A stretch of 64,000 bases of DNA from Escherichia coli O157:H7 (GCF_013167455.1 NZ_CP038328.1); one strand, 5' to 3'; positions 1 to 15,675 are shown, counted from the stretch's first letter. Translations and numbers: made by a program. The notes: generated from the sequence alone by a model not told the origin.

Positions 1-238
1 ACAGCGTGTGAATACTGTTGATCCACTCAGGGGTGGTGAGATTTGAGCCACCTAATCCACCGGAGCGTTCACCACGCTGGAGCCGTTCAGGATCGCGCCC
101 ATACAGCCACTCCAGCGCGTGGTCTATCTGCCGGGCGTTGTCATCCAGCCCACAAAGCGTCGTTTCTGCCGCTTCGCCAAGAATTAATCGCCAGCGTTGT
201 AGCTCACGGGTGGTCAGAAGATCGTTCAGTTCAGACAT
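1..238 (-). CDS. yehP: VWA-domain protein YehP, N-terminal part only (gene continues beyond window start)
   Basis: Minus-strand ATG at 238-236 overlaps the upstream stop (ATGTCTGA) and opens MSELNDLLTTRELQRWRLILGEAAETT..., running to the window edge; matches my recollection of YehP. Missing from the ORF track because truncated. Confidence 0.7.
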   Translation of the reverse strand, partial: MSELNDLLTTRELQRWRLILGEAAETTLCGLDDNARQIDHALEWLYGRDPERLQRGERSGGLGGSNLTTPEWINSIHTL

Positions 239-2510
239 GGAAAACTCCCCAGTTTTGCAGCGATGCCAGTGCCTGCTGTTCGAGTTGTTGATGATGTGCA
301 ATGGCTTGTGGTGGGCAATGCAACGGCATTTGCAGCGCCGAAACGGGAAGTTGCGCCAGTTGATAATGTTCAAGCACCTGATGCGCCAGTGTCCCGCGTT
401 CTCGTGGCGGTAGCCAGGCCATCGCCGCGCGTAAATCGGGCAGGGCATTGATAAAATCGGCATCACTTGGTTGATTTAAATGACTGCTGAAACCGGCGAT
501 AAATGCCGGCTGACAGGCCAGTTGATGGCGGGCCAGCGCCAGCAAACCGTGCAGCGCTTCGCCGGATTGTGCCGGGGATAACTGCGCCAGCATCGTCAGC
601 GCCGCTTCGGCACTAGCGTTGGGATGTTCCAGACGCATCAGTGCGCCAAGAGCCGCGCCGCGATCCAGCGCCGGGGCATGGATTGCCTGACTGCGTCGCT
701 CCAGTAAGGCTACCGCCGCAGAAAGAGAAACGCCGGGTAAATTAACGCCGCTATGTAGATCGCGCAGAATATGGCAAAGCGCTTGCCAGCTATGCAGGTG
801 AGCGTGAAACTCCTTTTCATCCGGTCTGCCGTTAGATTCACACAGCCACAGCGTGCGATCGATAGCCGCGCATAACGTCGTTTGTGATATCTGCGCACCT
901 TGCATACCGCTAATTTCATCCAGCCGCCATAAGGCATATAGCACTTCCAGCGCCGGGCCCATTTCGGCAAATTGATTTTCCTAGGCGATTAATAATGTGA
1001 GTTGCTCCAGTAATTGTTGACTGAAGGACGCCAGACCCGCTAACGCCGCCTGGCTAAGACATGTGGTGATACTGCCGATTCCACCCGCGTCCAGCATATC
1101 GGCTTCTAATTTATGGCGTGCGGCTTCCTGGAGTGTGGCACCAAAGCAGGCGGCCTCAATCAATGCCGCATGCTGGCTAAGCGGGCGGGTTAATTTCCAG
1201 CGTTCTTCACCGTTGCCTGCAAGTGTCAGTGTGCTTCCCTGCTGGCGTACAATCCCTGGGATCTCCAGTATTGCCAGCCGATGTAACACCTGACTTTGCG
1301 CTAGTCCATTGGGGTTAAAGCGATTTAAGGTAAGCTCCGCCGAAAGAGAGATTGCGGTACGTTCCAGTTCGCAGGTGACATCTTTTGGCAGAGGCGGTTG
1401 TGGCGTAGAAGGGGCAAGTTTACCGAATCCGTCACCCGCTAATGTGTCTATCAACGTTAGCAGAATCGGATCGGTATCGGGATGAATAACGCCGCGATAG
1501 CTCCACGGCAACGGCGCGTTCAGGGCTTCTTTAATCAGCGAGCCTGCTATGGCATCCAGCCAGTCAGTGCGTAACGGTAGTTTATATCCGCGCAACTGTG
1601 CCAGCGCCATCGCATGCAGATGAGCGGCAGCCATATCCGCGGTCGAAGCAGGCAAGTGGTGTTGGCGCAAACGGGTAAGAACCGTTTTTAGCAGTTGTTC
1701 TCCCGCCTGCTGTAAGCCCCACTGCCAGCACCAGCTTTGCCAGACCGGGGCAGGCATTCCTGAAAGGTATCCTGCCAGCACATCAAGGCGCTTTTCACTG
1801 TAGGGTGTGAGATAACAACCTGTAACGGCATCTGCCAGCGAGGGCAATTCTGGCTTGTTAATGTCCTGCGGGCATTCGCGCCACATTTTTGCCAGTGCCG
1901 GAGCGTGCCAGCCACCGCAGACGACTAACACGTCGCCATTATTTTGCTGCACTGCCCATGCAATCCAGCGAGCCATAAAGGCTTCGCGCTGACGATTGAG
2001 TGCATCGCCGGGGAAATCGCCCCGCAGTTGGGCAAAATAGTGCGCCAGTGCAGAGGGTAATGCAGTTTGCTGGCTTTCATCTTCGAACAAGTGATCCCAC
2101 AGGGTATCGCTGTTATCCATGCGGGTGGCACGCAGCAGCAAGGCCTGGCTTTCCTCTTGCGTATCAGGCGAATCGTCCTCTTCTTCACTCTGCGCCCAGC
2201 AAGGCAAATCGATAAAGTAAGTTTGTGCCTGAATATGACGTGCGGCTTGTAGCGCCTGCCACTCCGGCGAAAATTCGGCAAATGGCGTCCAGGCGCCGCG
2301 CCCAGGAGCAGCACCGTCCTGATACTGGCAATAACTGTAAATAGCCACCGGAAGCTGGTGGGCTAAAAACAGTTCATCTACCCGGTCATTAAAATCAGCC
2401 GGGCCTTCAATCAACACGTATCGTGGTCGCTGGCTTTCGATTAACGATTTCACCAGTCGGGCGCAGGCCGGACTATGATGCCGGATGCCGACAATTAACG
2501 GCTCGCTCAT
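231..2510 (-). pseudogene. yehM: YehM-like large protein; frame interrupted by a single in-frame TAG at 981-983
   Basis: Track ORFs 981..2651 and 231..962 share one minus frame and are separated only by TAG. Probable start ATG 2510 (MSEPLIVGIRHH...) lies 10 nt after the yehL stop; the end overlaps the yehP start. 759 codons if read through. Confidence 0.6.
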
Positions 2511-14800: not shown

Positions 14801-15675
14801 GCGATATCCGGGCGTTCAGGGAGCAGTAACGCCGCAAAAGGTTGCCGTGCGGGGGATAGCGTCGGAATGGCGGTGAGTACTTTATCTACACAGCGTTGCC
14901 ACTCATCTTCTGAAGCGAGTGAAAGATGATGACATAGACGTTGATGCTAACTAGGTAGCGATTCTGCTTCGTGATTAGGTGGAATGATGGTGGTTACTGC
15001 GCCTTTTACTGGTTTATATTTGAGTTGAAGGGCAAAAAGGACGATTTCAACGGCGCTTTCCAGACCACAGCGAATGACTAAGTCATCGACCAGTTCATCT
15101 GCAGAGTAAGAGTTCCAAAAACTCCAGAGCAATGCTGCATCAGATTGCGCACTCCCTGTCTGTTGATTATCCAGAATTCGCCTTTGTAACTCAGCAAAAG
15201 CCTGCTGCCAGTTTTCAGGATAAGAGCGGTAATTGTTGTCGGGATCATATGCCCTGGTGTTATCTGCAATACGCTTCCATATCTCACCGTCTTTGCGCAG
15301 ATAATTGATCTCTCTGGGGCGAGAGCGATGAGGAAAAGCAAATCGGTTAATATCGTCAGTTACCGGAATAACTGCATCATCAGCCAGCCACGGGCGTTGG
15401 TTTTTACTCTCAGGGGAAGTTTCAACTTCAGGAGTGGCTTTGGTGATGGGGGGGATATGCACGTTTGCTGAAGCATTTTCCACATAGCCTTTTTTCGTTT
15501 TCTCCGCGATAAGCTTCAGTTTCGCTTTTTCCGCTGCTGCAACATCCGCAAAACTTTTTATCTGGCTTTGCCCGTTAGTGCCGACTTTGCCCCAGTTGAT
15601 ATGCAGCTCGTTTCCCTGCTGCTCAACCGCCCAGAATTTATGTGATTTTTCGTCCTGATAGATAAAGTGTCTCAT
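11866..15675 (-). pseudogene. molR: molR-like giant protein (WGR domain N-terminus), interrupted by one in-frame TAG at 14947-14949
   Basis: Track ORFs 14947..15675 and 11866..14757 lie in the same minus frame; the 189 nt between them are open in that frame. 1269 codons end to end, close to the ~1264 aa I recall for intact MolR. N-terminus MRHFIYQDEKSHKFWAVEQQGNELHINWGKVG. Confidence 0.65.

Follow-up and report, generated by a model that had tools for sequence, protein, structure and literature searches.

Here we describe a group of genes at the beginning of a stretch of 64,000 nucleotides (nt) of Escherichia coli O157:H7 DNA (GCF_013167455.1, NZ_CP038328.1), one strand of which was analyzed and which is called here, at its full length, the window. 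These genes encode very large DUF4132 proteins (giants), some of them with an N-terminal WGR domain, and next to them the MoxR-family ATPase YehL, the DUF5682 protein YehM, the VWA protein YehP and the SWIM zinc finger protein YehQ. Comparison of many genomes strongly supports the view that the DUF4132 giant(s), YehL, YehM, YehP and YehQ are one five-component gene system of unknown function that extends across at least five bacterial phyla. Genes were called from the RefSeq annotation of a genome identical over the first 16 kb, from our own translations and from precomputed Pfam matches. The following features (lengths in amino acids, aa) were recognized:

15683-15702, minus strand: LexA (SOS) box AACTGGATAAAATTACAGGG, with its end 7 nt before the molR ATG
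11866-15675, minus strand: molR, a giant of the yehF/yehH type, 1269 codons, with WGR, helical repeats and DUF4132 (Pfam matches on both fragments)
14947-14949, minus strand: in-frame stop at codon 243 of molR, which is a pseudogene (RefSeq "internal stop")
8868-11853, minus strand: molR paralog, the second WGR/DUF4132 giant, with the WGR part at 10573-11853 (N-terminal) and a C-terminal DUF4132 part; pseudogene
5229-8858, minus strand: yehI, an intact giant of 1209 aa that has the conserved C-terminal DUF4132 module but no WGR (Pfam)
4850-5167, minus strand: yehK, an open reading frame (ORF) of 105 aa
3690-4800, plus strand: zor-orz, a tandem type I toxin-antitoxin insert with toxin ORFs of 29 aa at 4042-4131 and 4651-4740 and a repeat period of about 610 base pairs (bp)
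2521-3609, minus strand: yehL, an intact gene of a MoxR-family AAA+ ATPase (Pfam AAA_5)
231-2510, minus strand: yehM, DUF5682, with a predicted N-terminal TIKI/TraB/ChaN-like domain and C-terminal HEAT-like repeats
981-983, minus strand: in-frame stop at codon 510 of yehM, which is a pseudogene in the O157 window
1-238, minus strand: 5' end of yehP, first 79 codons only (Pfam VWA_CoxE/VWA_2)

A preliminary description of this DNA had placed these genes close together on a single strand, and the named genes do lie close-set on the minus strand where it put them. Only 12 nt separate molR from its paralog, 9 nt the paralog from yehI, 61 nt yehI from yehK and 10 nt yehL from yehM. That layout has to be corrected in several respects. 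The zor ORFs are on the plus strand, and yehM is a pseudogene. The yehP gene starts at position 238 and overlaps yehM by 8 nt (from the yehM stop to the yehP start), but no more than the 79 codons listed lie inside the window, and the VWA/MIDAS part (metal ion-dependent adhesion site) is located beyond its edge. The gap of 1240 nt between yehK and yehL is AT-rich and holds the zor-orz insert; yehK itself had no match in Pfam, NCBIfam or PADLOC. The yehQ gene follows yehP outside the window and is truncated in the O157 lineage by IS1203, an insertion sequence (IS) of the IS3 family. The frameshift of the molR paralog is a 47-bp deletion near position 10647, as seen in the alignment with an intact ortholog of 1010 aa from Escherichia sp. 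E1V33. With lesions in molR, its paralog, yehM and yehQ, the system of the O157:H7 window is probably not active.

Conservation of the giants and the yehLMPQ genes

How far do the giants and the yehLMPQ genes stay together outside E. coli? To answer this question we aligned 14 diverse YehM (DUF5682) homologs and scanned GTDB, one genome per species, with the alignment. At least 544 stretches (confirmed by tblastn among the first 600 pattern matches) encoded a YehM relative. The 80 best loci, each with flanks of 10 kb, were retained, and the component counts that follow refer to them. The content of each locus was determined by searching its six-frame ORFs with the E. coli proteins. YehL was present in every locus (80/80), YehP in 78, YehQ in 76 and a MolR-like DUF4132 gene in 72, and three of the eight loci without a MolR-like gene stop at a contig edge. 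The MolR-like gene immediately precedes yehL, on the same strand, in 66 loci, usually with a spacer of tens of bases. The 80 loci come from Escherichia, Klebsiella, Erwinia, Serratia, Massilia, Variovorax, Burkholderia, Xanthomonadales, Myxococcota, Thermoanaerobaculia and many Actinomycetota. All five parts were also retained where the gene order is permuted (D is the giant), as in L-M-P-Q-D of Burkholderia, L-D-M-P-Q of a metagenome and L-M-D-P-Q of a Sinorhizobium plasmid. The number of giants per locus varies: 39 loci have one copy, 12 have two, 20 have three, and one has five.

The reverse test started from the family of the DUF4132 C-terminal module, which comprises 8273 representatives at 50% identity. 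Three of the five representatives sampled adjoin AAA_5/DUF5682/VWA genes, and the other two stand alone. The yehK gene was found in only two of the 80 loci, both of Escherichia, and zor-orz is known from Escherichia/Shigella only, with z3289/z3290 lying between yehI and yehL and absent from MG1655 (PMC2887945). Since the neighbourhoods retain the giants and YehLMPQ while yehK and zor-orz are restricted to Escherichia, the conserved unit consists of these five parts, and yehK and zor-orz are local Escherichia additions outside it.

These counts strongly support the proposal of the preliminary description that the WGR/DUF4132 giants and the MoxR/VWA operon belong to one uncharacterised system: the neighbourhood comparison could have separated the two blocks, and it found the giants and yehLMP conserved together elsewhere, permuted orders included. 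The linkage to a toxin-antitoxin locus, offered there as a hint to the role, is incidental, because yehK and zor-orz are not part of the conserved system. The idea of a single module is borne out by co-conservation across taxa, but it does not extend to regulation in E. coli, where molR has a LexA box, yehLM is silenced by H-NS, and control of the two blocks is thus separate.

Domains, variation and regulation of the components

The catalytic motifs of YehL, namely Walker A (GEPGTAKS), Walker B (VRFEE), sensor 1 (ATANTRD) and the Arg finger (KRRF), are at least 90% conserved among 79 homologs, and Walker B has E-E instead of D-E. Among solved structures the nearest in sequence are the AAA modules of midasin (E 5e-10) and MoxR 2r44; weak matches to GvpN and CobS-like families were also obtained in the NCBIfam and other family scans. 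YehL is one of seven named MoxR subfamilies, and E. coli K-12 has only two MoxR ATPases, of which YehL is one, without known role (PMC3893208). In YehP the MIDAS motif DxSGS...GGGT...SDF is complete and conserved in 79 homologs, and this protein weakly matches an NCBIfam cobaltochelatase model. The NCBIfam scan of all components assigned them to no named family and gave only weak matches of GvpN, MadB and cobaltochelatase type. For yehP of E. coli the program FSscan predicted a +1 ribosomal frameshift site, and the frameshifted product of a reporter was seen by mass spectrometry (PMC2790909). The first SWIM finger of YehQ, CxCx5CRH, is conserved across homologs. Sequence-profile searches of the PDB with YehM, the DUF4132 module, YehQ and YehP returned nothing significant.

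The AlphaFold2 (AF2) model of YehM is good, with a predicted local distance difference test (pLDDT) score of 82. In this model the N-terminal domain has the parallel beta-sheet core fold common to ChaN, HopBA1, PMT and Bcr135, with the haem-binding ChaN as its best fold match, and the remaining approximately 500 residues are modelled as HEAT-like repeats. ChaN, HopBA1 and PMT belong to the TIKI superfamily, in which the active proteins have a 2His/2Glu site where the parallel strands end (PMC6254334). The alignment of 14 homologs has invariant H11 (in GxRH), E35, D101 and H202 (in GGxH), which in the model lie at or just after the predicted strands 5-9, 31-37, 96-101 and 194-199 and may form one site. 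We therefore regard the domain as a predicted TIKI/TraB/ChaN-like hydrolase fold and YehM as a putative hydrolase. It is the only module among the partner proteins that the models predict to be enzyme-like. A Pfam scan of the alignment found DUF5682 in all 14 members and TraB, ChaN or EreA in none. DUF5682 is not mentioned in the literature searched, and DUF4132 has few mentions there.

The giants are distinguished by strongly conserved C-terminal ends. In 60 full-length homologs conservation is strong over the last 420 residues or so and poor over residues 100-650. The conserved C-terminal helix has an invariant Ser-Glu. The same contrast is seen between O157 molR and its paralog, which are 69% identical in WGR and 72% in the C-terminal module but only 32% in the middle. 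By their sequences the giants are mosaics with conserved ends and a divergent middle. For residues 790-1209 of YehI the AF2 model (pLDDT 88.6) has HEAT-like repeats followed by alpha/beta domains; no informative structural neighbour was found for the model of the DUF4132 C-terminal module. WGR, reported as DNA-binding in MolR-like proteins, was found in 53 of the 72 loci with a MolR-like gene, and Pfam gives no alternative N-terminal domain for the giants that lack it.

Some relatives are arranged differently. One metagenomic relative (6883-12213 of the retrieved stretch) is a fusion of 1776 aa that joins HisKA/HATPase_c, WGR and DUF4132, with a gene of an OmpR-type response regulator before it and a MoxR gene after it. 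Judged by its domain order, this fusion of histidine kinase, WGR and DUF4132 supports a signalling or sensor role, and its kinase output may replace the usual output or add to it. Another DUF4132 protein, of 1673 aa (8103-16155 of the retrieved stretch), stands alone, and its gene is flanked by those of a ParA/Mrp-like ATPase and a DinG-like helicase. The E. coli cluster, too, is two genes away from mrp/apbC, maybe by coincidence.

Within E. coli the two blocks differ greatly in constancy. At a coverage of at least 80%, yehL-yehM was present in 5211 of 5426 complete genomes (about 96%), mostly at 95-99% identity. The test stretch for the giants was window 10700-15675, which comprises molR and the first 385 codons of the paralog; it reached 80% coverage in only 1626 of the 5426 genomes, and elsewhere mostly short matches at 80-90% identity were found. 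Thus in E. coli the giants are strongly variable and yehLM is near-universal. The K-12 genome has a single WGR giant, which is split (yehF plus the pseudogene yehH), while yehI and yehLMPQ are annotated intact; the name molR is no longer used in the K-12 annotation. When this giant (2975-6770 of its record) is compared with window 8868-15675, its 5' end resembles the starts of both molR and the paralog, whereas the O157 paralog is what the 3' end matches, which suggests that K-12 lost one copy by recombination between tandem paralogs. In strain AB104 the WGR giant has an internal stop, and FDAARGOS_1276 has three intact giants together with a frameshifted yehL. The blaCTX-M-15 transposon TnMB1860 was reported in the metG/DUF4132/yeh region of 184 isolates of a sublineage of sequence type 131 (ST131) (PMC9334617). 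This insertion is a further sign that the region tolerates disruption.

The 20-mer AACTGGATAAAATTACAGGG occurs exactly once in the window and never in shuffled sequence, and we take it to be the molR LexA box published by Fernandez de Henestrosa et al. 2000. The molR gene is among the LexA-regulated genes of E. coli with a known SOS box (PMC6590174). No CTG-N10-CAG box was found within 260 nt upstream of the operon in 24 Gamma-/Betaproteobacterial and other loci, no upstream-placed GAAC-N4-GTTC box in Actinomycetota loci, and relaxed LexA, Actinobacteria Cheo-type and Xanthomonas-type patterns gave no consistently placed sites outside Escherichia. The PafBC/RecA-NDp core TGTCRGTG was uninformative in actinobacterial loci because this 8-mer is too frequent in high-GC DNA, with recurrent matches inside coding regions. 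In Deinococcus, the WGR gene DR2173 and the DUF4132 gene DRA0166 belong to the DdrO regulon and are strongly induced on DdrO depletion (PMC8533742).

The yehK-yehL spacer of K-12 is bound by H-NS, and yehL and yehM are upregulated in hns/stpA mutants (PMC3686432). With a LexA box at molR and H-NS silencing at yehLM, the two blocks are therefore separately controlled in E. coli. In the O157 spacer the two zor-orz units share 87-94% identity and start 609-611 bp apart. Each contains two divergent promoter-like sequences (3810-3860, 4419-4469) and a hairpin that is terminator-like on both strands. Judging from these hairpins, read-through from yehK should be stopped before it reaches yehL.

Proposed mechanism and alternative roles

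By analogy with better known MoxR systems, the five components probably constitute a conserved cytoplasmic machine in which an ATP-driven, midasin-like remodelling switch would act on variable sensor giants. We think of a working multi-protein machine because the components are co-conserved and their motifs are intact. A hexamer of YehL with YehP as its MIDAS adaptor would work as a split midasin or in the manner of other MoxR-VWA pairs, and both proteins would dock on the conserved DUF4132 module of the giants. With ATP they would assemble, remodel or switch a large complex for which the helical repeats of the giants and of YehM would serve as scaffold. The input would come from WGR, the variable repeats and the SWIM finger; damaged or foreign DNA, or some other cue linked to DNA, is the most plausible one. 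The output would be hydrolytic, probably proteolytic, and would arise at the His/Glu site of YehM.

Several known systems share parts of this architecture. MoxR/VWA pairs such as RavA-ViaA, CbbQ-CbbO, NorQ-NorD and CoxD-CoxE also have an AAA_5 ATPase beside a VWA protein, with intact catalytic and MIDAS motifs, but the system described here has three more conserved partners (DUF4132 giants, YehM and YehQ) and no linked client enzyme. Midasin/Rea1, the best solved match of the YehL sequence, combines an AAA_5 ring, long helical repeats and a MIDAS/VWA domain, which here are split over several proteins. However, midasin is one polypeptide with six AAA modules that acts on pre-60S particles, nothing ties the bacterial system to ribosomes, and the analogy is mechanistic only. 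The chelatases BchI-BchD-BchH and CobS-CobT-CobN also join AAA+ and VWA proteins with very large partners and give weak family matches, but no CobN/BchH homolog and no cofactor-pathway genes occur in the neighbourhoods examined here. The WGR DNA sensors (WGR of PARP, "MolR-like" proteins, PADLOC WGR_XIII) share the N-terminal WGR with the giants of the 53 loci mentioned above; in contrast to them, no ADP-ribosyltransferase or reverse-transcriptase partner is present here, and many loci, like YehI, do without WGR. From the TIKI/TraB/PrgY/ChaN/EreA superfamily (including RRSP, PMT and HopBA1) YehM differs in having no match at the Pfam level, in its fusion to about 500 aa of HEAT-like repeats and in its location in a MoxR-VWA operon.

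The vWA-MoxR-VMAP systems (Kaur, Burroughs, Iyer, Aravind 2020, PMC7159879) resemble the yeh system in the combination of the dyad with large repeat partners and a predicted peptidase-type effector, and in a patchy distribution that favours Actinomycetota, Myxococcota and similar groups. Their partner families are different, and SWIM, WGR, DUF4132 and DUF5682 are not mentioned in PMC7159879. No VMAP protein was identified among the partner proteins studied here, for which Pfam gave matches to DUF4132, DUF5682, SWIM and WGR only. The YehL subfamily and its VWA neighbour were already known; in the literature searched we found no account of the five-part system, of the giants as obligate neighbours, of a TIKI-like DUF5682 domain or of the split between conserved and variable parts.

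What role could such a machine play? Somewhat less than half of the probability falls, in our estimate, to surveillance or conflict, about a fifth to an accessory function in DNA damage, a little under a fifth to an assembly chaperone, and the rest to other roles. It is possible, though we would not call it likely, that the system serves anti-phage or anti-plasmid immunity, in which the giants would sense the invader, the MoxR-VWA pair would switch and the TIKI-like peptidase YehM would be the effector, by abortive infection or target cleavage, in parallel with vWA-MoxR-VMAP. Conserved machinery beside strongly variable giants in E. coli, mosaic paralogs with divergent middles in one to five tandem copies, patchy spread over distant phyla, recurrent independent inactivation and the H-NS silencing of yehLM are all consistent with this role. 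The system is also present on mobilizable or conjugative plasmids, one copy being beside a type I restriction-modification (RM) system. PADLOC does include a WGR protein model, but eight of our nine proteins matched none of its families and the single match, to WGR_XIII, was weak (E 5e-4); no core component was matched. In about 96% of E. coli genomes yehLM occupies a fixed chromosomal site and not a variable island, and its neighbours are mostly ordinary genes. Of seven flanking contexts inspected individually, one had type I RM and IS elements, one had SMI1/KNR4-type genes, and the others had nothing of this kind. No report of phage protection by the system was found in the literature searched, and Kaur et al. 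2020 (PMC7159879) name neither SWIM, WGR nor DUF4132. A conflict-related role is a tentative reading, with which the strong variation of the giants inside one species agrees. An equally tentative and broader formulation would be a new class of ATP-driven surveillance, in which hypervariable HEAT-repeat giants, often with WGR as a DNA-end sensor, recognize invading or damaged DNA or its protein products, the split MoxR-MIDAS motor switches, and YehM as a TIKI-family peptidase executes.

If the giants instead bound DNA breaks through WGR as PARP does, and the MoxR-VWA pair remodelled or cleared protein-DNA complexes in repair, the system would be a DNA-damage accessory, which we consider rather unlikely. 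SWIM and WGR are nucleic-acid-associated domains, molR belongs to the E. coli LexA regulon with its box in the window, the Deinococcus genes DR2173 (WGR) and DRA0166 (DUF4132) respond to DdrO depletion, and a stand-alone DUF4132 giant adjoins a DinG-like helicase gene. But the other Gamma-/Betaproteobacteria examined have no upstream LexA-type box and the actinobacterial loci no box of their type, many loci are devoid of any WGR, no repair genes are conserved in the neighbourhoods examined, and hypervariability inside a single species is unusual for repair factors. Still less probable, in our opinion, is a dedicated chaperone for assembly or cofactor insertion (chelatase/CoxDE/NorQD type) that serves an unlinked metalloenzyme and uses the giants as a scaffold, as the old label "molybdate metabolism regulator" might recall. 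The matches of YehP to VWA_CoxE and weakly to the cobaltochelatase model, those of YehL to GvpN and CobS-like families, and haem-binding ChaN as best fold match of YehM point this way, and most characterised MoxR-VWA pairs mature specific enzyme complexes (PMC3893208). Against it stand the lack of a CobN/BchH-type subunit and of any conserved cofactor or enzyme gene in the neighbourhoods examined, the variable multi-copy giants, unexpected for a housekeeping assembly factor, and the removal of the molR name from the current K-12 annotation. That the two blocks are mere neighbours in Escherichia, independent in function, is very improbable: the AT-rich, H-NS-bound spacer, with terminator-like hairpins of zor-orz in O157, and the different regulators would fit it, but not an adjacency found in 66 of 80 loci and several phyla that persists through gene-order permutation.

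The favoured view of a remodelling machine with sensor giants also has to account for observations that weigh against it. WGR is missing from all giant copies in 19 of the 72 loci, and some MolR-like proteins stand alone. A LexA box upstream of the operon was not found outside Escherichia, and in E. coli LexA acts on one block and H-NS on the other, while the insert has hairpins that resemble terminators. The TIKI assignment of YehM depends on the predicted fold and motif positions, Pfam finds no TraB/ChaN/EreA match, and ChaN itself is a haem binder and not an enzyme. Except for the weak WGR match, none of the parts is covered by a PADLOC model, and the flanking genes are mostly unrelated to defence, two plasmid loci excepted. 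Frequent inactivation in E. coli lineages could be explained by plain dispensability there. The interactions and roles given to the components are drawn from sequences and models.

By the neighbourhood comparison, the real functional unit of YehL has five parts and includes YehM, YehP, YehQ and the DUF4132 giants. Neither K-12, with its split WGR giant, nor O157, with four broken genes, has a complete system, which may explain the absence of phenotypes. All five genes are intact in Klebsiella oxytoca, Erwinia persicina and Serratia fonticola, for example. The predicted hydrolase site of YehM, the intact MIDAS of YehP, and the conserved docking module and variable middle of the giants are the handles on it. 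If true, the surveillance reading would give a function to the second MoxR ATPase of E. coli and a new immune architecture in thousands of genomes, from Proteobacteria to Actinomycetota.

Flanking genes and phage records

On the Sinorhizobium plasmid pBSY16_2 (1-10010 of the retrieved stretch) small genes lie upstream of the system, including SMI1/KNR4-family, DUF1963, DUF6389 and YcxB genes. Such small-gene arrays are frequent at toxin-immunity loci.

A phage origin of the cluster was considered and rejected, with no real match in 50,697 phage records. Seven PHROGs (phrog_30700, 33984, 36602, 28101, 29006, 31592 and 36295) match the lengths of O157 pseudogene fragments exactly. These lengths are 509 and 243 aa for YehM, 426 aa for the N-terminal part of the paralog, 242 aa for that of molR and 667 aa for the truncated YehQ. 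The matches look like chromosomal DNA included in an over-extended O157 prophage call and not like a trace of phage origin.

In the identical O157 genome, where the yehQ-side region is 3848-7105 of the record, the annotation also gives a frameshift for btsS, a sensor kinase gene near yehQ. At the other side of the cluster, apbC/mrp lies at 17951-19090 on the plus strand, and beyond it the GC content falls to 35-41% (window 19000-22000), where the yeh fimbrial operon begins.

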